Below are positions 1 to 45,611 of a DNA stretch of 64,000 nt, piece by piece (position 1 is the stretch's first letter; the number at the start of each line of letters is the position of its first letter). The notes below the pieces were generated by a model. It was not told the DNA's origin. It saw only the letters and a program-made list of their open reading frames with translations, and made no database searches. The stretch lies in the IMG/VR virus record IMGVR_UViG_3300048687_000113, positions 45,244 to 109,243 of that record. One strand, written 5' to 3'. The stretch is from a virus. A program made the position numbers and the translations under genes.

Positions 1-2038
1 CACGATGGGACGGGAAACTGGCAACCAAGACCGTAGAGGCTTAAATGAGGCTCTCTCCCCTGTGCGAGCAAGAGAGGGCTTTAGCCACGGTCACGCGTGG
101 CGAGGAAATGAAACGCCACGTGTGCCAGGAATACCGGGATAGGACCGGCGTCACACCCGCTAGACGCACGGGTGCCATAGGGCACGGCGAGGGAATTCCC
201 CTCGCTCTGATCACCCCCCTTTCGCGCCCCCCGCCCGCCGGATTGGCGAGCTGCGGTGGGGACAGACACGTTTCTACGGCATCACGAGGGTGTTGTGATG
301 CCCTATTTTGTAATCACTCAACTGCGTTCCGTGGTAACACCAGGTCAGAGGTGGCGCCAGAGGGCTAAAGAATCTTGAAAATAGGGGGGACATCTCAGCA
401 TGCGGACGATCAAGCTGTCGCGATTGCCCGGGTGAATCTGGACAAGCTACGCGTTGTCGCCTAGTTCCTTACGAATACCCCTGTGTCCGTATTCAGGAGG
501 GCAAAATTTCATGATCGCTCCCCATGGGGCGTCAAGCCCCTAGAGGTGCCGAAAACAGCCCCTGACCTGCGAAAACACAATTTTTCCGCGATCATGGAAA
601 ACGGCCGTTCGGAGGGGCCGCCCGCGCCGACGTGGGTACCAAAACGGCACAACCGGGACAAAAAAATCCCGCGCCCCTGTACGCCTCCCTACGGCGCTCC
701 CCTCCCTTGGGGGCCCGACGGTCCGACCGTGGCGTTTCAGGCCGGTACAGGGCCGCTGACAGGGGCTCTTGCCACTGCCCGCGCGCCGACGGGGGGTGCG
801 TAAGGGGGCGCCCGTGGCTCTGTATGCCTCTGTCGTGGCCTAACTCGGCGTCGGGGTCCCCTTGCCTCCCCACGGGGTCCGACGCGTCAGGACGGCGCTC
901 AGCGACTCGCGCCTACCTGTGGGTAAGGAATTGCCCGCTTGTGATTTAAGCGGAGGTCGGCATCCGTTTAATTCACAAGGGGGCAGGATCTTTCCGTGGG
1001 GTAAGGTGACGGCGCCTCATATGGATTACCTGAATCCATATTCAAAAACTGACGGCGCGTCATGAGGACTGGCACGCTCCACATGACAGGGCGTCAGGAA
1101 ATACGGGCTAATCCGACACGCCCCGGAAAATGCACGGGCGCGAAAATTCGGGGGTTCTCATGCGGTGTGCCCCCACTTGCGGCAGTACGACAGGGTATGA
1201 GGTAGAGGATCACGACACGCCCGCGCTTGCCCGGCTATGAGGTAGCAACTCCCCTATGCCGGTGAAATGGCTAATGCCAGGGGTGCGGCTTAGGTCCGCA
1301 TACGTGCATTTTAGGCAGTACCTCACACTCGCCCCGTTACCTGTTGATACGTGCAGACATGAGGCGGATAGGCATTATGCCGGTATTTGCAATGCAAAGC
1401 GGAGCGCAGGTTCCGCTAGCATTGCGGTACGCGCTGGTAACGTCACGATGCGCTCAACATTACGCAAGGTAGCTGGAACTACCGTGCGTAACATGGGGCA
1501 TAGGGCATGTTACCGGGAGTACGGGGCGCATGGGTGCCTTTCGGGGCAGACCCGGGGGTACGTGATTTCCAGCCCTATAAGCCTCACGAGTGCCGCAACC
1601 CCTCGAAACCGGACAAATAGGTGACGAATCCCTGCAAACCCGGACCCCCCACCATTAAACGCCCAAAATGGACAATTGGGTGCCTGGGCCTCCACACGCT
1701 TCTCAGCGGTAGGCCGGCGGGCAGTGTCCTCGCTGCCGGCAGTGGCCGGACGCCAATATTCCGTTTTATTGCGGGTGGCCGAGGGCTCAGGGAACCGCCC
1801 GGGGCCCTCGGCCCGGATTCGGACCCACCAGGTGCCGAACTCCAGGCCACGAAGGTATCAAACGGCATACAGGGGCTGTCTGTTGCTCGTCCCGCGAATT
1901 GGGTGCGGGGCCGCCGGAGTCTCAACGTCACGCGATGGTCTGCCGTAAGGGTCACCCCTCGTGGACGCCCACCAGACGCGCGCCAGAGCAGCGGACGCGG
2001 CCCCGCAGGACGAGGATAGCGATCGGCCTGCGGAGCTT

Positions 2039-2365
2039 CTACGGCGCCGGCAGCACATCCGTTTCGACGTTCTCGACGAGCCGCACGATGTCGGCCGGCC
2101 GGATCGGGCGTTTCTCGCCAGTGGCTTCCCAGCGAGTGCGCGGGCCGTGGAGGACCAGGAGCGGGGACATCTCCTCGCCGTCGTCGTACACCGGGAACTC
2201 CCGCTTGCGCACATCGCCCAGGGCAAGTGACAGGGCGTATGCCGTGATGGTGGACAGCGGGAGGCCGTTCGGTCCTCTTACGGGCTCGTGCCGCCGACCG
2301 GCCCACCGGCAGATGGCGTCGGCTTCGGCCTGCGTGACGCGCTTAAGTGTGAGATCCGGGCTCAT
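2039..2365 (-). CDS. hypothetical protein
   Basis: 108-aa ORF, ATG preceded by GAGG, protein-like composition. Confidence 0.6.
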   Translation of the reverse strand: MSPDLTLKRVTQAEADAICRWAGRRHEPVRGPNGLPLSTITAYALSLALGDVRKREFPVYDDGEEMSPLLVLHGPRTRWEATGEKRPIRPADIVRLVENVETDVLPAP

Positions 2366-2563
2366 GCCTCAACGGTAGGCCGGAGAGGCGCCGTTCAAGT
2401 GCGGTTCGTTCGACCCCAGCTCGACCGCAGAAAGGCCGGCGACCCTCGACGGGGGTGGCAAGGGCCGCCGGTGTGTGAGGGCCGGCCGCCCAGCCCCGAA
2501 GGGCCCCCACGAGCAGCCGACAGCTCCGACGGTACAGCGTCACGAGTGGGTCAGGATGGCCGT

Positions 2564-2836
2564 ATGAACTCAGAACCCGGCCCCAAGCCCGAGGGCCTGC
2601 TGCTCTCCCCGAGCGACGCCGCCATGCTCGCCTGGTTCGTTATCGACGACGTCGAGCGGCTCACGATCGAGGAGGCCGCCGGCAAGCTGGGCGTGAGCCC
2701 TGAGACGGCTCGGGTGATCATTTCCAGGGCAAAATCGAAGCTGCGCCGCTACGCGGGCACGCACTGGCCGCTCCCGGCGGGTGACCCCACAGAGGTGGTC
2801 GGGGATTTCTCGACCGATGCGGGGCCTACGCCTTAA
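2564..2836 (+). CDS. small sigma70 region-4-like HTH DNA-binding protein
   Basis: LTIEEAAGKLGVSPETARVIISRAKSKLR matches the sigma r4 HTH pattern. CAGGAT -10-like box 6 nt before the ATG suggests a leaderless mRNA. Confidence 0.75.
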   Translation: MNSEPGPKPEGLLLSPSDAAMLAWFVIDDVERLTIEEAAGKLGVSPETARVIISRAKSKLRRYAGTHWPLPAGDPTEVVGDFSTDAGPTP

Positions 2837-3021
2837 GCCTTCTTGTTCTTCGCCCTGGCGGCCTCAAGCTTGGCGGCGCAGACGTTGCACAGCGGGCTGG
2901 ACGGCCGGCCGGCGGCTCCGTACTTCGGCGCCATGTTTTCGCACCGGGCGCTCGCGCAGGGGCCGGCGCCCTCGCTGGGGCGGACATAGAGGACGACCGG
3001 GTCGGGGGCAGGGGTGCTCAA
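2833..3021 (-). CDS. small Cys-rich (putative Zn-finger) protein
   Basis: CASARC...CNVC motifs; TTG start; converges on the HTH gene. Confidence 0.55.
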   Translation of the reverse strand: MSTPAPDPVVLYVRPSEGAGPCASARCENMAPKYGAAGRPSSPLCNVCAAKLEAARAKNKKA

Positions 3022-3135
3022 GGCGGTGCTTCCTGTTCAGTTCGGGATTCAACAGGAAGGGTACGTCGGCCGGCGCCTTAGCCGGCGAAGCCCAGCTCGG
3101 TGTCCGTGCCGCGAGCAGCGCCCACGCCGACCAGC

Positions 3136-3305
3136 AGCTCCAAGAAAGCACCGAGGAGCTACAGCCGGCGTGGGCCTCCACACAGCTCCAAGAAAGCAGC
3201 GAGGAGCTGCTGCCGGTGGTGACCGCCATGGGTAGCTCCAGGTTCCAGTCAAGGAGCTAGCGGTCCCGCCGACGGAACCTCCAAGGATCAGCCGAGGAGG
3301 TTCCG
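3136..3305. repeat. array of four CTCC-N13-GGAG hairpin/palindrome units
   Basis: Units start at 3136, 3184, 3234 and 3277. All have a 13-nt interior. Compensatory change AGCTCC/GGAGCT to ACCTCC/GGAGGT. Confidence 0.85.
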
Positions 3306-3314
3306 CTGGGGAGG

Positions 3315-3701
3315 TTAGCGCGTGCCCTCTGCTGCGGGCAGGGCCGGTGTCTGGGCGACGCGGCCCTTGCGGACGCGGCGGCGGTGCCGGCGCTCGGCTC
3401 GACGGTTTTCCTTCGGGTTCCATCCGAGAGGGTGGTGCCACGGCTTGCGGACGTTCACGCACTCGTCCGGGGCGTAGTAGCGCGGGTCGTCGGGCCGGGT
3501 GCGGGGACGTCGTGTGAGGCAGAGGCGGCAGGCGCTGAGGTTCTGGTCGTCGAGGTGGGTGCGGGCCCTGTCGAAGAAGTGGGCCAGGATCTCCGCGTCC
3601 CGCTGGGCCTGCTGTTCGGGGGTGAGCGGGGGGTGGGCGGCTCGGTATGCCTCGCCCCAGCGGGTGAGTAACTCGCCGACGGTGATGGTGTGTTGGCTCA
3701 T
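3315..3701 (-). CDS. hypothetical basic protein, probably leaderless
   Basis: MSQHTITVGELL... with a CxxC motif; TACATT -10 box 6 nt upstream of the ATG. Confidence 0.65.
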   Translation of the reverse strand: MSQHTITVGELLTRWGEAYRAAHPPLTPEQQAQRDAEILAHFFDRARTHLDDQNLSACRLCLTRRPRTRPDDPRYYAPDECVNVRKPWHHPLGWNPKENRRAERRHRRRVRKGRVAQTPALPAAEGTR

Positions 3702-3705
3702 GGCG

Positions 3706-3745
3706 GCAATGTAGTGCGCACGCAGTTGCGTACGCACTACATTGC
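3706..3745. promoter_or_regulatory. 40-bp near-perfect palindromic operator/promoter containing TGCGYACGCA-GT-TGCGTACGCA
   Basis: gcaatgtagtgcgcacgca-gt-tgcgtacgcactacattgc (1 mismatch); GTGCGY-N18-TACATT on both strands. Confidence 0.8.
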
Positions 3746-3768
3746 GTTGAAGTTGGCCTGTTGCGGGT

Positions 3769-4095
3769 TCAGGCGGAGCGTTGGGAGCTGGCGCGGAGCT
3801 GGGCGACGACCAGCTCGTGGGCGGCTTCGGCCTCGATGACGGTGCAGGGGTGATGGCCGGCCCACTCGTCTCGCCAGCGGTTGTTGCGGCAGACGCCGGT
3901 GTGGAACATGCTGCCGGCGCCTACCACGCCGGAGTCGATTCCTTCCCACATGGTGCGCACGAGGAGGTCGTCGACTTCGGTCTCGGCCACCAGGCGGTAC
4001 TCGATGTCGGCGAAGAGAACGGCCCACTCCATCACGGCCAGGGGCCGGCCCTCCTTGTCACGGTGGCAGATTCGGTCGGTGGTCTGCTCGTGCAC
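3769..4095 (-). CDS. hypothetical actinophage protein (paralog of 6964-7404)
   Basis: GTG start with AGGAGGAG RBS; shares GRP...LxADIExR...VRT...H motif pattern with the 6964 protein. Confidence 0.75.
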   Translation of the reverse strand: MHEQTTDRICHRDKEGRPLAVMEWAVLFADIEYRLVAETEVDDLLVRTMWEGIDSGVVGAGSMFHTGVCRNNRWRDEWAGHHPCTVIEAEAAHELVVAQLRASSQRSA

Positions 4096-4180
4096 TGCTC
4101 CTCCTGGCTGGGATTTTGCGTCGCGTCGCCTGCCGGGGCGCAGGCTCCGCCGGCCCCATGTTGGGTGAAGTGCCTGCCCG

Positions 4181-4203
4181 TTGTCAGTCGTGCGTGCCAT
4201 AGT
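4181..4203 (+). promoter_or_regulatory. RecA-NDp-type (LexA-independent, DNA-damage) promoter
   Basis: TTGTCAGTC-N8-CATAGT resembles the actinobacterial tTGTCRgtg-N8-TAnnnT consensus; 24 nt before the first repeat. Confidence 0.6.
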
Positions 4204-4227
4204 GGTTGAGCCGTCGGGAAGTTGGGC

Positions 4228-4611
4228 GGTCTCCCCGCGCGAGCGGGGGTGTACCGGTTGAAAGGCACGGCCGCGCTGTTGCCTGGATACTTTCCCCGCC
4301 GACGCGGGGGTGGTCCTTCTTTGTGTTTGATTGCAGGTAGGGATCTTGATTTGACCCCGCGCATGCGGGGATGGCTCGATTTCTAAGGGCATAGCACGAT
4401 GTTCCCCGCGCAAGCGGGGATGGCCCCGCAGTTGAGAGAGCCAGTACTTGCTCCCCGCACACGCGGGGATGGTCCTGTAGTCAAGAGGGCTGGTATTTGC
4501 TCCCCGCGCACGCGGGGATGCTCCGCTTCGGCGGAGGTGGATCGAAACGGCATCTCGTGAGAGGTCCCTGAAGATCTCAGAAAACCGCTCCGCACACGCG
4601 GAGGTACGCGG
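4228..4611 (+). CRISPR. Cas-less degenerate type I-E-like CRISPR mini-array (6 clear repeats plus 2 GGAG-type repeats)
   Basis: 29-nt repeats at 4228, 4289, 4350, 4399, 4448 and 4497 with CCCCGC-N4-GCGGGG stem; spacers 32, 32, 20, 20, 20 nt; CTCCGC-N4-GCGGAG repeats at 4516 (overlapping) and 4583. Confidence 0.88.
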
Positions 4612-4705
4612 AAGGCTCGTCTCCTGGGGAGGCGGGCCTTTCGTCTTGCCTGGGATGTCGGGGGTGTTGGGGATGCGCGGTTTGGCATATGCCAACTCGT
4701 GACTG

Positions 4706-4727
4706 TGCGTACGCAGTTGCGTGCGCA
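4706..4727. promoter_or_regulatory. TGCGTACGCA-GT-TGCGTGCGCA operator, copy 2
   Basis: Same tandem palindrome as at 3715-3736 and 12339-12360. Confidence 0.75.
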
Positions 4728-4848
4728 GCCACTACCTTCGTGATACGCGCCACATCGGCCCGGGGAGCGGTCCCGGCCAACGGGTGCGCGGCGCGGGGAC
4801 GGTCTGCCGGAGTGCGGGCAGGTCGTGACGTTCGGCAGGAGGTTCCCG

Positions 4849-5274
4849 ATGGGTTCGGTAGACCAGCTCCACAGGATGCTCGGTGAGGTCAACCGGTTGG
4901 AGGGTTACGACCCGAGAGCGCCGAAGCTGCCGGCGGTGCCTGCGCACTGCCGCCGGCACGGGACACCCTACTCGCCGCAGGACACCATCAACGGGCTGTT
5001 GTGCTGCGCCTCGTGCCTGGCGGAGTCGGATCTGAAGCGGTACGAGGAGTCGAAGCATGAGCGAGACGGTGATGAGCTGGGAGGCGGCGCGGAGGCTGCT
5101 GAAGCGGGACCCGGAGGCGGTGGTGTCGAGCCTGTCGTGGGCGCAGCCGGGCAAATGCATTTTCAGAGCCAAGGCGTTCGTGGTGGTGCCGGCGGCGGCG
5201 ATCACCAAGGAGGAGCCGGTGGGCGCGATGCCGATCAGCGAGCAGGAGAGCATTCCGGCGCTGTGGTTCCGTGA
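4849..5274 (+). CDS. hypothetical protein, Cys/His-rich N-terminal part
   Basis: ATG with CAGGAGG RBS; CRRH...CCASC. The 3' half overlaps the next gene, so the C-terminal extent is doubtful. Confidence 0.5.
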   Translation: MGSVDQLHRMLGEVNRLEGYDPRAPKLPAVPAHCRRHGTPYSPQDTINGLLCCASCLAESDLKRYEESKHERDGDELGGGAEAAEAGPGGGGVEPVVGAAGQMHFQSQGVRGGAGGGDHQGGAGGRDADQRAGEHSGAVVP

Positions 5275-5365
5275 CCAGGCGGGGCGGGTGGGCCCGTATG
5301 CCGGTTCGGCGTTCGGGGATGAGCGTGATGACTGGGTGGTGGGGCCGTCGGTCGGCGATTCCTGA
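5057..5365 (+). CDS. DUF2829 / Tad2-like anti-defence (nucleotide sponge) protein
   Basis: MSWEAARRLLK..VVSSLSW..PGKCI and PALWFRDQAGRVGPYAGS...DDWVV follow the DUF2829 pattern (FxxAxxxLKxG..V.R..W; PY....G...PW..S..D.LA.DW); GAGGAG RBS. Confidence 0.65.
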   Translation: MSETVMSWEAARRLLKRDPEAVVSSLSWAQPGKCIFRAKAFVVVPAAAITKEEPVGAMPISEQESIPALWFRDQAGRVGPYAGSAFGDERDDWVVGPSVGDS

Positions 5366-5397
5366 CGCGGTGCGGGCCGCAGCCTCTTTTGTGCTGG

Positions 5398-5448
5398 CCC
5401 CGCAGGTGTGTCGTCCTCCCCCGGCCGGCACGCCTGCGGGGTCTTTTT
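5398..5448 (+). terminator. intrinsic terminator
   Basis: cccgcaggtgtg...cacgcctgcggg stem followed by tcttttt. Confidence 0.7.
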
Positions 5449-5503
5449 GTGTCTTTTTTCGCGGTGGGACGATTGCGGTCAAATGCCTTGTAAGGAGACC
5501 GGT

Positions 5504-6397
5504 ATGGCCGTGACGAGTTCCGCGACGTTGTCCGCTGGTGAAGTGCCGGCCGAGGTTTCGGTGGAGGTTGTTTCCGATACGAGCGTTCGGGTCTCCTGGA
5601 CGAGTGCGGAGGACCCGCTGGGCTTTGTCGTGGCGTGGTCGGTCGCCGGCGCGGAAGCCTGGACGGAGCGGCAGGTGTCGGGGGGCGCGCGGAGCCTGGT
5701 GGCGACGGGGCTGCGGCCGGGGACGGGGTACGTGTTCCGGGTGCAGTCCGAGTCGGTCTGGAGTACGGAGGCCGGCGCGGAGACGACGGGCTCGACGCTC
5801 GGGGCGCCCACGCTGCTCGTGGGCGACATCCTGGACCGCAACGCGAGTGTGAGTGTGCTGTCCCCATTCCTGGTGAGCCAGGCGCGTGTCGTCGAGGCGC
5901 AGGTGCGGGACACCCGGACGGACAGTCCCTGGTATTCCGTCTCGGATGTGCCGTGGAATCTGGCGGCGGTGGGTCTGTATGAGACGGGGTTCGGGCTGAA
6001 GGGGCTGTCGACGGGAACCACGTATGCGGTGCGGGCCCGGGTCACGGCCGGCGAGGTGGTGTCGGAGTGGTCGCCGGAGACGCGGTTCACGACGACTGGG
6101 ACCAGGAGTGGGAAGCCGAGCCTGTCGGTGGTGGCGGACTCGGCGACGTACAGCTCGGTGAAGCTGACGTGGGGGACGTCGCTGAAGGCGACGGTGCGGA
6201 TTCACCGGTGGGTCAGGTCGACGTCGCCGGGCTCTCCGTTCCTGTCGCAGCAGGTCGGGTATTCCACGGACCTGGCGGGGACATTCACGGACTCGGGTCT
6301 GTCCCAGGGGACGGACTATTGGTACACGGTCGAGTGGGTGCGGGATTCGCGGACGATCAGTGTTTCGAATCCTGTTGCTGTACGAACGCGGGGCTAG
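5504..6397 (+). CDS. fibronectin type III repeat protein (about 3 domains)
   Basis: SVRVSW...GLRPGTGYVFRV, GLSTGTTYAVRAR, SVKLTW...SGLSQGTDYWYTV; AAGGAG RBS. Confidence 0.85.
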   Translation: MAVTSSATLSAGEVPAEVSVEVVSDTSVRVSWTSAEDPLGFVVAWSVAGAEAWTERQVSGGARSLVATGLRPGTGYVFRVQSESVWSTEAGAETTGSTLGAPTLLVGDILDRNASVSVLSPFLVSQARVVEAQVRDTRTDSPWYSVSDVPWNLAAVGLYETGFGLKGLSTGTTYAVRARVTAGEVVSEWSPETRFTTTGTRSGKPSLSVVADSATYSSVKLTWGTSLKATVRIHRWVRSTSPGSPFLSQQVGYSTDLAGTFTDSGLSQGTDYWYTVEWVRDSRTISVSNPVAVRTRG

Positions 6398-6963
6398 GGG
6401 AGGCTGGTTCGGGGCGGGTGCCGCACTGTTATTCAGGTGATGGGGATAACGGACGCGAAGCGCCTGGACTTTCACCTCGCGGATAAGGCATGTGCCCGCG
6501 TAGAAACTGTGCTGTATTCGTGAAGAAATACGGCAGACGACAGTTGCCGGTGATACCTGGTGGGGCGTATGAGTGTTCGCCAGCAATCACGAACCCAGGC
6601 CATACCCCTTACCGGGGGTGACCGTACTGCCGAGTAGTCTCGCTATTCGGGACACCATCTCCGGCATTTCGGATGCATTCACCGAGCGGCATATGCCGAG
6701 CACGCATCCACCCGGAGCACAAGGCCGCCGTCACTCATTCGAGTGACAGGCCAACAATTTTTCAATTCCGCCGTGACTGACCCCGGGGCGTGTGGGTTGA
6801 TAGTTCTGCGGTGGACACGGCGGGCCCCCGAGCCTCTTCCATTTGCTCTCGGGGGCTTGCTGTCCGCCAAGGCCGGTCCGGCACAGAGGCCGCGCAGCAA
6901 ACCCCCCCTGCCTGCGCCTGCCTCTGTGCCGGGCCCTTCCGTTTTGAAGGGAGAGAAACTGTC

Positions 6964-7404
6964 GTGTCAGTTAGCGAGTTGGTCTCCGCCCCTACGGGTC
7001 CTTCACGGCTTTCTTTCGCATTCGGCCTGGACGGCAGGCCGGCTTCACGCCACGAAGCCGCTCATCTGCTCGCCGATATCGAGCACAGGACCCTGCATAA
7101 GACGGACCTCAGGCTGGCGACGGGCGATTGGGTCACCGTCCGCACGGTCTGCCTGGTCTTCGACCCGGACTTGCAGGCCGGCGAGCTGGTCTCTGCCGAT
7201 TACCGGCCGCGTGTGTGGGGCACCGCCCTCTACACGCCGGCCCCGGAGAATGCGCTTCTGGAGGTGCTGTGCGGCTACGACGACGCGGACCAGGCCGTCG
7301 AGGAACACAAGCAGGCCCTGGCGATGGTCGCGGTGGGAGCCAACAGCCCTGGCAGGGAACCGAATTGGGCTGCTGGGCTGTCGTGGACGGGGCCGGGCCA
7401 GTGA
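6964..7404 (+). CDS. hypothetical actinophage protein (paralog of 3769-4095)
   Basis: GTG start after GGGAGAG; LDGRP..LLADIEHR..VRTV..EEH. Confidence 0.75.
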   Translation: MSVSELVSAPTGPSRLSFAFGLDGRPASRHEAAHLLADIEHRTLHKTDLRLATGDWVTVRTVCLVFDPDLQAGELVSADYRPRVWGTALYTPAPENALLEVLCGYDDADQAVEEHKQALAMVAVGANSPGREPNWAAGLSWTGPGQ

Positions 7405-7667
7405 CGCTGCCCACGCTGTTCGTGCCGCATGTGCCGGACGGCGACCAGGGCCTGGTCCTGCGAGTCAACGGTGTTGCGCCGGAACCGTGCGGGCGTCGCT
7501 GGTACGTCCTGACGATGGAGGGCGTCGCCTACCGCTTGCCCCGGGCGCTGTGGCCGTGGGCCATGGAGCTGGACGCGCAGATGCGCCGGCGCGAGCGGCG
7601 GATGCCGGCCTCGTTTGCTTTCCGCCGTACTGGCGAGACGCTCTCCGCCGAGTCGATCTCGGCGTGA
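7401..7667 (+). CDS. hypothetical protein (RLPRxxxPWAxE family)
   Basis: GTGA translational coupling; YRLPRALWPWAMELD. Confidence 0.7.
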   Translation: MTLPTLFVPHVPDGDQGLVLRVNGVAPEPCGRRWYVLTMEGVAYRLPRALWPWAMELDAQMRRRERRMPASFAFRRTGETLSAESISA

Positions 7668-7683
7668 GACGAGAGGAGATGGG

Positions 7684-8016
7684 ATGCAGACGCCTTTCAC
7701 CGGCGCCAACCTTCAACGGCTGCTCGCCGAGGTGCGCGCCGCGCGGGAGTTCCGCATCGACGAGGGCTACACGCGCCGACGAACGGAGCTGAAGGCGGTG
7801 TGGGCCGACGAGGCGACCGGCCTGGTGTGGATCGAGGCACACAACGGCACCTGGCGCCTGCCACGGGAGTTCCTGCCGTGGGCCCTGGAGGTCGACAGAC
7901 GCGCGTATGCGGTCCTCGGGCACGGCGAGGTGTTCCCGTGCGGTGCGGTTTTCGAGCGAATACACAATGGCTCTTGGGAAGTGGAGATTTTCCCCGATGT
8001 ACTCGCTGTTCGATGA
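7684..8016 (+). CDS. hypothetical protein (RLPRxxxPWAxE family)
   Basis: GAGGAG RBS; WRLPREFLPWALEVD. Confidence 0.7.
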   Translation: MQTPFTGANLQRLLAEVRAAREFRIDEGYTRRRTELKAVWADEATGLVWIEAHNGTWRLPREFLPWALEVDRRAYAVLGHGEVFPCGAVFERIHNGSWEVEIFPDVLAVR

Positions 8017-27269: not shown

Positions 27270-27360
27270 TGCGCTAGCACCGGCAACGACACCCAGCAAG
27301 ATCACTTAGCTAGCCAGCACTCATTCCCACTCGGTTCCGCTGGCGGGACCGGAGGCGGGA

Positions 27361-39629: not shown

Positions 39630-39712
39630 CAGCCATCGCCCCGCACTGTTTCTGAGACTCATGGCCAGCCTTCATTTCTGCTCGGTTCCGCTGGCGGAAC
39701 TGGAGGCTTCAC

Positions 39713-43988: not shown

Positions 43989-44078
43989 TTAACGGGCATT
44001 CCGCCTGCCTCCGTAGAATCCCCTTATCAGGCCAGCACTCATTTCTCATTCGGTTCCGCTGGAGGAAACCGAGAGGAA

Positions 44079-45611
44079 GTGTGTGCCGTGGCAGTCGACA
44101 GCGGGTCCGTTGCGCAGATCGACTACACCTCCCGCGATTTCACGGGCTATCGCGACTCGCTGCTCCAGTACGCAACGCAGATCCTGCCGGAATGGACGAG
44201 CCGCTCACCCGCCGATTTCGGCGTGGTGATGGTGGAACTTTTCTCCTACGTCGGCGACATCATCAGCTTCTATCAGGACAGGATCGCCGACGAATCCTTC
44301 CTCGCCACCGCCACCCAGCGCTCCAGCGTGGTGGCCATCTCCCAGCAGCTCGGATACCAGCCGCACCCCGCGATCCCCGCGACCGGACAGGTGGCCTTCT
44401 CGCCCGCTCCCGGCCTGGTCTCCCCGGTCACGCTCGACGCCGGCACCCAGGTGATCACGGAATACCTACCGAGCCTGGACCGGCCCATCGTCTACGAGCT
44501 GACCTCTCCCGTCGTCGTGCCGGCCTACACCACTCCCGTGCCGCAGGTCGTCGGTCTGGTCGCCGAGGGGGCCACCCAGGGCGACCGCAGTCTGGTGCTG
44601 TACCCCTCGACGTCGGGTGAGGCCGGCTCCACGGTCCGCGTCGAGGACATCGGCACCTCGGACGGCACCAAGTCGCAGACCTTCGCCCTGGCCCAGTCCC
44701 AGGCGCTGCTCGACACGGTGCGCATCTTCCTCGATGACGGGGTGGGCGGCACCGAGTGGACACGAGTCTCCGACTTCCTCCTGGTGCGCGACAGCGACCT
44801 CGTTTTCACCGCCGAGACCGACGACCAGGGCGTCACTCACGTGACGTTCGGCGACGGGACCAACGGAGCGCTGCCGGCCACCGGCATCAAGCTCACGGCG
44901 GCATACCGGACCGGGGGCGGCTCGTACGGCAACATCCCGCAGGGTTCGATCATCGATCTCGCCGATGCGCTGCCCGGCGTCGTGGTGGCCGGCTCCGCCC
45001 CGATGGCCGGCGGCGCGGACGAGGAGCCGACCGACCAGGTCCGGGAGAACGCCCCGCGCTTGTTCCGCACGCAGGGCCGGGCGGTCTCCGCCCAGGACTA
45101 CGCGGACCTGGCCCTGGCCGTGCCCGGCATCGCCGACGCCCGTGCCGTGGTCCGCTCGTCCAGCGCCGTGACCATCTATGTCGTCGGCCCGAACAACATC
45201 CTCCCGAGCGAAGGCCAGAGAGACTCCGTCGCCCAGTACGTGCAGGACCGCGCCCTGTCGGGGGTCGTGGTCAACGTGGTCAACGGCTCGCTGATCCCGG
45301 TGAACATCGGCTCCAGCACCGCGCCCGTGCTCCTGTCGGTACTGCCGCGCTATCGCCGCGACACGGTGAAGCTCGCGGTGCAGCAGGCCGTTCAGAAGGT
45401 CTTCACGCCTCCCGAGACCACGCTTTCCTCCCGTATCTCGATTTCGCACCTCTACAAGGCCATTCAGCAGGTCGCGGGCGTCGACTGGGCCGTCATTCAG
45501 CTCATGGCCCGCTCCGATCTCCCGCAGTCCGGCACCGCCGATGTCGTCTGCCGCGACAACGAAATCCCGATCGTCGGCAACGTCGTGATCACCGCCAGCG
45601 GCGGAGTATAG
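44079..45611 (+). CDS. baseplate J / gp6-like wedge protein
   Basis: IDYTSRDF, ADFGVV.VELFSY.GD, FGDGTNG, GGADEE, RAVSAQDY. Confidence 0.92.
   Translation: MCAVAVDSGSVAQIDYTSRDFTGYRDSLLQYATQILPEWTSRSPADFGVVMVELFSYVGDIISFYQDRIADESFLATATQRSSVVAISQQLGYQPHPAIPATGQVAFSPAPGLVSPVTLDAGTQVITEYLPSLDRPIVYELTSPVVVPAYTTPVPQVVGLVAEGATQGDRSLVLYPSTSGEAGSTVRVEDIGTSDGTKSQTFALAQSQALLDTVRIFLDDGVGGTEWTRVSDFLLVRDSDLVFTAETDDQGVTHVTFGDGTNGALPATGIKLTAAYRTGGGSYGNIPQGSIIDLADALPGVVVAGSAPMAGGADEEPTDQVRENAPRLFRTQGRAVSAQDYADLALAVPGIADARAVVRSSSAVTIYVVGPNNILPSEGQRDSVAQYVQDRALSGVVVNVVNGSLIPVNIGSSTAPVLLSVLPRYRRDTVKLAVQQAVQKVFTPPETTLSSRISISHLYKAIQQVAGVDWAVIQLMARSDLPQSGTADVVCRDNEIPIVGNVVITASGGV

Follow-up and report, generated by a model that had tools for sequence, protein, structure and literature searches.

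An array of four hairpins between two minus-strand phage genes as a possible transcript end without a U-tract

One hairpin motif returns four times in a short gap between two minus-strand genes of the phage analyzed here. We asked whether this array is more than a chance or coding palindrome, whether it would act as DNA or as RNA, and what it could do for the genes on either side.

The hairpin array and its neighborhood

The window, that is the whole stretch of 64,000 nt analyzed, corresponds to positions 45,244–109,243 of IMG/VR record IMGVR_UViG_3300048687_000113 (full record 109,243 bp, 66.5% G+C), and all coordinates below are window positions. The major capsid protein is ∼60–62% identical to those of Streptomyces phages BRock, LuckySocke, GiJojo, and pSt2308, and we thus regard the phage as a distant member of the large-genome BRock-group actinophages. 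The first 19 kb of the window hold small genes without known function and Streptomyces-type regulators; encoded there are an XRE-type regulator with DUF5753, DUF397, a HATPase fragment, a TPR protein, and thymidylate kinase. CRISPR-like repeats are found at 4228–4611 with no cas genes nearby, in agreement with a preliminary description of this DNA that had placed a CRISPR mimic ∼1 kb from the hairpins. The 329-aa plus-strand ORF 5408–6397 encodes a fibronectin type III domain (Pfam E 1e-13); the codon-based caller preferred an overlapping ORF on the minus strand, and the gene call is ambiguous at this position.

The array occupies the 293-nt gap between the stop codon of gene D and the start codon of gene C, both on the minus strand. 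The motif CTCC-ARG-N7-CRA-GGAG occurs four times on the plus strand, with CTCC starting at 3138, 3186, 3236, and 3279. The four CTCC-N13-GGAG hairpins reported in the preliminary description, with periods of 48, 50, and 43 nt, are thus present and have exactly the interiors quoted there; only their positions needed correction, having been counted from an AG or AC two bases upstream of CTCC. The degenerate unit pattern is expected 0.41 times in the window, and the observed count was reached by 0 of 100 shuffles. The whole 109,243-bp genome contains exactly four matches, all at this locus, and the reversed control gave 0. Hairpins that combine a 13-nt interior with a stem of 6 bp or more are likewise concentrated here, 5 of the genome's 69 falling in 3029–3305 where ∼0.17 would be expected. 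We conclude that the four-hairpin array is real and exclude a chance origin.

Read along the minus strand, unit 4 (3273–3305) is the first hairpin past the gene D stop and begins 9 nt downstream of it. It has a 10-bp stem (arms 3273–3282/3296–3305), a 2x2 mismatch, two G-C pairs, and a 5-nt loop. Unit 3 (3233–3259) has a 7-bp stem, TAGCTCC/GGAGCTA, and the core variant AGG...CAA, and unit 2 (3183–3209) a 7-bp stem with an extra G·U pair on the minus strand only. Unit 1 is nested, as had been noticed before, in an outer stem (GCCCACGCCG/CGGCGTGGGC, 3120–3129/3166–3175), and the whole (3120–3175) folds as one 21-bp minus-strand helix with three G·U pairs and one bulge. A fifth hairpin, CTTCCTGTT-N13-AACAGGAAG, previously placed at about 3030–3060, is located at 3029–3059, and its minus-strand 3' arm contains the gene C ribosome-binding site AGGAAG. 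A small hairpin, GCCGGC-N6-GCCGGC (3069–3086), spans the stop codon of a DUF6233 relic described below. The 33-nt units are separated by gaps of 10–17 nt. Units 1 and 2 are a 46-nt tandem duplicate with 83% identity, and units 3 and 4 have only the core in common with them; this 14-nt core does not vary among the four units, whereas divergence has brought units 3 and 4 down to near-random identity in their spacers and outer stems.

As a separate observation, the 11-mer GGTTCCGCTGG occurs four times in the window (3299–3309, 27333–27343, 39684–39694, and 44052–44062). The copy at 3299–3309 makes up the 3' arm of unit 4 together with its flank, and each of the others stands at the end of one of the stem-loops found ahead of late structural genes. 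A GGAGG-like ribosome-binding site follows in each case, and we estimate the probability of such sharing by chance at ∼0.01.

We called the genes around the array by a codon-usage log-likelihood test trained on the long genes of the phage, which recovered five genes, including minus-strand genes A (2039–2365) and E (3769–4095). Gene B (2564–2836, plus strand) codes for a 90-aa protein with a sigma-70 region-4-type HTH. Gene C (2833–3021, minus strand; 62 aa, four Cys, TTG start) lies downstream of the array and has its own conserved leader. It is a real gene, 57–58% identical to proteins of two other viral contigs with all four Cys kept, and its product gave no family match. Genes B and C converge, their stop codons overlapping at 2833–2836. 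As there is no hairpin between them, B transcripts must run antisense through C into the array, and a gene B read-through transcript would carry the plus-sense array.

Gene D (3315–3701, minus strand; 128 aa) has conserved Cys/His residues and a basic tail, RRHRRRVRKGR. It is real and conserved, with homologues in Streptomyces genomes and in a 108-kb provirus. Searches for its function in Pfam, PHROGs, PDB sequences, and the ESM Atlas returned nothing firm, and a profile scan of genome contigs with the D alignment gave no match. A -10-like box, TACATT, stands 6 nt before the ATG with no evident ribosome-binding site, and gene D thus looks like a separate transcription unit, probably leaderless and probably with its own promoter. 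Its homologues have the same upstream layout beside a conserved palindrome. In our phage a palindrome of the type GCGTACGCA-GT-TGCGTGCGC at 3704–3748 overlaps the putative gene D promoter and recurs near 4700–4740, and a similar palindrome with a TAnnnT box is found upstream of D homologues in the provirus (L136, 5950–5995) and in three Streptomyces genomes (L325–L327). The palindrome at the D promoter looks like a conserved, putative operator.

Base pairing and strand of the units

The preliminary description drew each unit as a stem, two purine-purine mismatches, a G-C pair, and a 7-nt loop. The two mismatches followed by the G-C pair are found in every unit when read on the plus strand, and the 7-nt loop in units 2 and 3; in units 1 and 4 one further pair reduces the loop to 5 nt. 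In 4 of 4 units both mismatches juxtapose two purines on the plus strand and two pyrimidines on the minus strand, with the A·G pair swapped to G·A in unit 3. Positions 5, 6, 16, and 17 are conserved but not dyad-symmetric, and their asymmetry points the same way in every unit. The left and right halves read AAG versus CGA in three units and AGG versus CAA in the fourth, which is not the layout of a symmetric operator. Because the asymmetry is kept in one orientation, a single-stranded structure, most likely RNA, is favored over the four operators that had been offered as an alternative.

In the alignment of the units, pair 4-30 differs from unit to unit (AU, CG, UA, and UG) and pair 6-28 takes two forms, GC in three units and CG in the remaining one. 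The inner G-C pair and all four pairs of CUCC with GGAG are invariant. Compensatory stem changes, as claimed earlier, are present, with both sides of the stem changing and pairing kept. The covariation score was reached by 36 of 500 shuffles, a thin statistic for an alignment of four units that includes a recent duplicate pair. Compensatory change can also be imitated, in the absence of selection, when quasi-palindromes are repaired by template switching. The outer stem positions appear to covary around the fixed core, which we take as good evidence, albeit from four units only, that pairing is maintained and the structure constrained.

Folding of the whole region yielded −158 kcal/mol (z −6.3) for the minus strand and −149 (z −4.3) for the plus strand. 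For unit 1, the values are −44.2 versus −31.7 kcal/mol, because three G·U pairs on the minus strand, which join the inner and outer stems in the 21-bp helix, are A·C mismatches on the plus strand. Units 2 and 4 each gain one G·U pair on the minus strand. Unit 4 folds about equally on both strands (−25 kcal/mol, z about −4.3 to −4.6) and for unit 3 the plus strand has a slight advantage (−10 to −14 kcal/mol, z about −2.7). Taken singly, units 1 and 4 form strong hairpins (z −4.3 to −5.5) and units 2 and 3 weak ones (z −0.9 to −2.8). With moderate confidence, resting mainly on unit 1, we take the minus strand to be the relevant sense of the array.

Coding capacity, relatives, and origin

The region had been described as non-coding, an assignment that a conserved translated protein repeat would contradict. 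We find that the units neither share one frame nor have homologues. By the position of their CTC, units 1, 2, and 4 are in plus frame 0, whereas unit 3 is in frame 2. Plus frame 0 is closed by TAG at 3258, offers no ATG, GTG, or TTG between 2817 and 3207, contains the rare codons TTA, CTA, CAA, and TCA, and is junk by codon statistics where it overlaps gene C. The searches made with the array region found no protein homologue and no DNA homologue. Judged by open frame, start codon, coding statistics, and homologues, the array is not a protein-coding repeat. It does have gene-like traits: plus frame 0 reaches a log-likelihood ratio of 0.34 over 3099–3227, attained by only 1.7% of wrong-frame windows, and the units translate as LQxxx(E/K)E(L/V), each in its own frame. 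Derivation of the hairpin units from coding sequence is possible, but it accounts neither for the six additional base pairs in unit 4 nor for the 10-bp stem enclosing unit 1 nor for the periods of 48, 50, and 43 nt. Two further reading frames were rejected. The only ATG-led minus-strand ORF of the array region (from ATG 3229; 121 aa, Ser/Cys/Trp-rich) runs out of frame through C and has non-coding statistics, and a plus-strand 51-aa ORF at 3322 behind GGAGG is an antisense artifact.

The same codons create a pattern artifact. A two-unit pattern scan of genome and metagenome contigs returned ∼140 loci, which we read as coding repeats and rejected as relatives of the array. They are mostly E-L-Q-x-x-N-E-E-L (LQxxNEEL) coiled-coil heptads with periods of 21, 42, or 63 nt, a few loci having other periods, and none has the stem-and-spacing layout of the array. 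In high-G+C DNA, LQxxxEEL codons automatically give rise to the word CTCCARG-N7-CRAGGAG and an AGCTCC/GGAGCT hairpin. CTCCAGG-N7-CGAGGAG at 21, 42, and 63 nt is a very common heptad word of high-G+C bacteria (loci L142–L283). Matches to such patterns or covariance models thus need a check of reading frame and period; as a practical warning, coding heptads produce hairpin-like palindromes inside genes, a general trap for motif and covariance-model searches.

The family of the hairpins had not been recognized in the preliminary description, and an Rfam scan of 1–8000 with permissive filters likewise returned nothing, a chance microRNA match scoring 24 bits against a threshold of 92. The covariance-model search proposed there yielded no second array in the genomes searched, and hence no family for comparison. 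Our covariance model (R1) scores its own units at 37–42 bits and finds a best match of about 22 bits elsewhere in the phage genome. In 151 Streptomyces genomes it returned scattered single matches of at most 33 bits and no array, the 11 matches inspected all lying inside long ORFs. Motif and model searches of BRock, LuckySocke, GiJojo, pSt2308, and the closer relatives G001–G003 found no array, and blastn of 2000–5000 and of the array alone against phages and plasmids gave nothing relevant. In IMG/VR, a single-unit pattern scan produced only chance single matches and a two-unit scan one match, a coding repeat of an A+T-rich giant virus (L141); in the 18 loci of a relaxed two-unit scan, no two adjacent stems of at least 6 bp were found except in that repeat. 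The array thus appears to be lineage-specific, being absent from all other sequences searched.

Relatives carrying D or C lack the array, and no protein co-occurs with it; those of C also lack the fifth hairpin. Downstream of D, its relatives have overlapping small genes or a gene after a short gap, and in one Streptomyces genome the D homologue is followed by a single 16-bp hairpin without a U-tract that faces a putative convergent ORF. On the C side, blastn homology to the two contigs carrying C relatives spans 3111 down to 2867 only and comprises the last ∼10 codons of a DUF6233 gene, the conserved leader, and gene C. The DUF6233 relic (3078–3111, minus strand; ...TDTELGFAG, stop TAA at 3080–3078) marks the homology junction. 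In one of the loci compared (L284), the DUF6233 gene is intact at 3606–3941, upstream of the C homologue (Pfam E 1.3e-15). We rejected the array as a decayed part of this gene: the minus frame, translated through the stop with X, lacks a Pfam match, and the DNA homology ends at 3111. Since the homology starts there and includes the C leader, gene C is a separate module. Judged by these alignments, positions 3112–3314 are an apparent orphan module inserted at a mosaic recombination junction. A low-G+C, apparently non-coding stretch near the start of the window (1500–1700) is conserved in the 108-kb provirus G001 (L136, 7500–7800), one shared segment containing TTTAATGGTGGGGGGTCC; phage and provirus are thus syntenic on both sides of a ∼1.5-kb variable segment that holds the array.

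Possible roles of the array and comparison with known systems

We tentatively read the array as a minus-strand RNA hairpin cluster in the 3' UTR of gene D that serves as a terminator without a U-tract or as a 3'-end/exonuclease barrier, and consider this the most likely of the readings weighed, albeit plausible rather than probable. Its transcription, its relevant strand, and its action as a terminator or barrier are what we infer from the following features. Unit 4 lies 9 nt past the D stop and both flanking genes are on the minus strand, overall folding is better on that strand (by a large amount for unit 1), pairs 4-30 and 6-28 covary, one Streptomyces D homologue is likewise followed by a hairpin without a U-tract, and gene C looks like a separate module with its own leader. 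On the minus strand, unit 4 would be met directly after the D stop and the very stable unit 1 would close the array ahead of the C leader. The hairpins would close the D transcription unit by stopping or slowing RNA polymerase without a U-tract, in the manner of many Streptomyces 3' ends, and would block 3'-to-5' exonucleases. Being palindromic, they would also stop antisense transcripts arriving from the convergent gene B and so insulate against B read-through, and gene C would be expressed from its own conserved leader, with its ribosome-binding site masked by the fifth hairpin. If the terminator reading is true, the array would be useful mainly as a compact two-way insulator candidate.

Tail-less terminators were reportedly described in the actinophage phiC31 by Ingham et al. 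in 1995. Terminators and 3' ends in Streptomyces are typically long stable hairpins with few U residues (PMC12207403), and for hairpins clustered next to stop codons a role as termination units has been put forward (PMC8355165). That mycobacterial RNA polymerase requires a U-tract in vitro (PMC3993855) counts against the terminator reading. Very low U content does so as well: only 1–2 U residues are found in the 10 nt after each hairpin on either strand, fewer than the 3–4 typical of Streptomyces terminators. Unit 4 is a G+C-rich hairpin after a stop codon, as in a canonical intrinsic terminator, and has no U-rich tract; a terminator consensus scan found none in 3000–3320. Further points against are that units 2 and 3 are weak, that the strand preference comes mainly from unit 1 and is slightly reversed in unit 3, that the covariation statistics are thin and could be imitated by template-switch repair, and that neither the invariant core nor the conserved internal mismatch is needed by a terminator. 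The fixed 14-nt core (CUCC, 2x2 mismatch, G-C pair) suggests recognition by a factor, or duplication and repair that keep the units alike.

Recognition of the core is the basis of a different account, in which the array is a multivalent protein-binding RNA whose four recognition hairpins titrate or recruit a phage or host protein, as a decoy, sponge, or processing signal. We consider this somewhat unlikely, there being no partner to name, no array in relatives that carry D or C, no second instance in IMG/VR, and no array found by the model in 151 Streptomyces genomes; the conserved bases, moreover, lie mostly within the stem and are not exposed in the loop. Speaking for it are the invariance of the core despite the near-random divergence of the spacers and outer stems of units 3 and 4, the mismatch asymmetry shared by the four units (with A·G swapped to G·A in unit 3), the location in an accessory/regulatory arm with CRISPR-like repeats and no cas genes nearby, and the arginine-rich tail that ends gene D. 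The multivalent structured RNA proposed in the preliminary description thus stands as far as structure goes, pairing being maintained in a non-coding region, and nothing shows the sponge, processing, or antitermination role suggested for it. Should the fixed core serve to bind a protein, the array would represent a new RNA element of phages, set in an accessory-gene-rich region. That it is a phage RNA decoy or recruitment platform capturing a host defense or RNA-processing protein, or an arginine-rich protein such as D, we judge quite unlikely; in that case one phage would have a second, unrelated RNA-based counter-defense element. The least likely of the roles weighed here is translational control of C in cis, by which the unit 1 interior would pair with the C ribosome-binding region in competition with the fifth hairpin, which already masks this site. 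On the minus strand, the 11-nt CGGUGCUUUCU (3153–3143) is indeed complementary to AGGAAGCACCG (3034–3024) with one G·U pair, but several equally good 11-nt complementarities arise by chance within the same 600 nt, units 2–4 lack this one, the relatives of C have neither array nor fifth hairpin, and unit 1 is locked in a −44 kcal/mol helix. The complementarity may be due to chance.

Outside RNA function, the array could be a functionless relic of a duplicated coding segment, later frameshifted, its palindromy a by-product of L-Q-x-x-x-E-E-L codons. The LQxxx(E/K)E(L/V) reading of each unit, the frame shared by units 1, 2, and 4, the gene-like score over 3099–3227, the ∼140 loci in which coiled-coil heptads alone create the same DNA pattern, the 11 inspected Streptomyces matches inside long ORFs, and the mosaic junction beside a gene relic all point this way. 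A relic is nevertheless unlikely, as the frame has no in-frame start over 2817–3207, is junk over gene C, contains rare codons, and has no protein or DNA homologue, and coding leaves unexplained both the six additional pairs in unit 4 and the 10-bp stem that encloses unit 1. We consider it very unlikely that a DNA-binding protein, for example the HTH protein B, uses the four units as dsDNA operators or as iteron- or centromere-like sites. The 21-bp units with inverted CTCC/GGAG stand four in a row, 200–470 bp from the HTH gene, and resemble in size the 20-bp sites used by LuxR/GerE-type dimers. A homodimer site would, however, not keep positions 5, 6, 16, and 17 asymmetric in one orientation; complementarity rather than sequence is conserved outside the core, the spacings of 48, 50, and 43 bp are out of helical phase, and the motif occurs nowhere else in the genome, promoters included.

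Among known systems, the E-L-Q-x-x-N-E-E-L heptad linkers of high-G+C bacteria share with the array the word CTCCAGG-N7-CGAGGAG and its AGCTCC/GGAGCT hairpin potential. Their periods are 21, 42, and 63 nt within long ORFs, in contrast to the 48, 50, and 43 nt of the array, its two frames, its lack of an ORF, and its extra stem pairs. The ToxI type III antitoxin, CRISPR repeats, and phage repeat mimics are, like the array, built from short structured head-to-tail units, and as in protein-binding tandem RNA arrays the setting is a phage accessory region, here next to a CRISPR-like repeat array. Unlike in those systems, our units are not near-identical and their periods vary from 43 to 50 nt. Only the 14-nt core is common to them and the gaps are 10–17 nt, which is not the layout of a CRISPR array; the adjacent genes include no toxin, Cas, or other partner, resemblance beyond the core is limited to units 1 and 2 (83%), and the downstream gene is the 62-aa, four-Cys C, which does not match a type III toxin-antitoxin locus.

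Enterobacterial REP/BIME elements resemble the array as imperfect palindromes with conserved mismatches clustered between genes; their presumed role is protection of the upstream mRNA. A genome contains hundreds of REP elements, whose orientation often alternates, whereas the four copies of the array motif all lie at one locus and point the same way, and the search of Streptomyces genomes found none; the motif is not dispersed in the phage or in those genomes as a REP/BIME would be.

U-tract-poor terminators of Streptomyces and actinophages and the proposed hairpin-cluster termination units (PMC12207403, PMC8355165) differ from the array in that its four hairpins share a 14-nt core and a 2x2 mismatch, two of them are weak, and termination is a prediction. 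They have in common with it stable G+C-rich hairpins that start a few nucleotides from a stop codon and are followed by few U residues, and a series of several hairpins separating transcription units. If ending the D transcript is all that the hairpins do, the array would be another multi-hairpin 3' end without a U-tract in Streptomyces phages.
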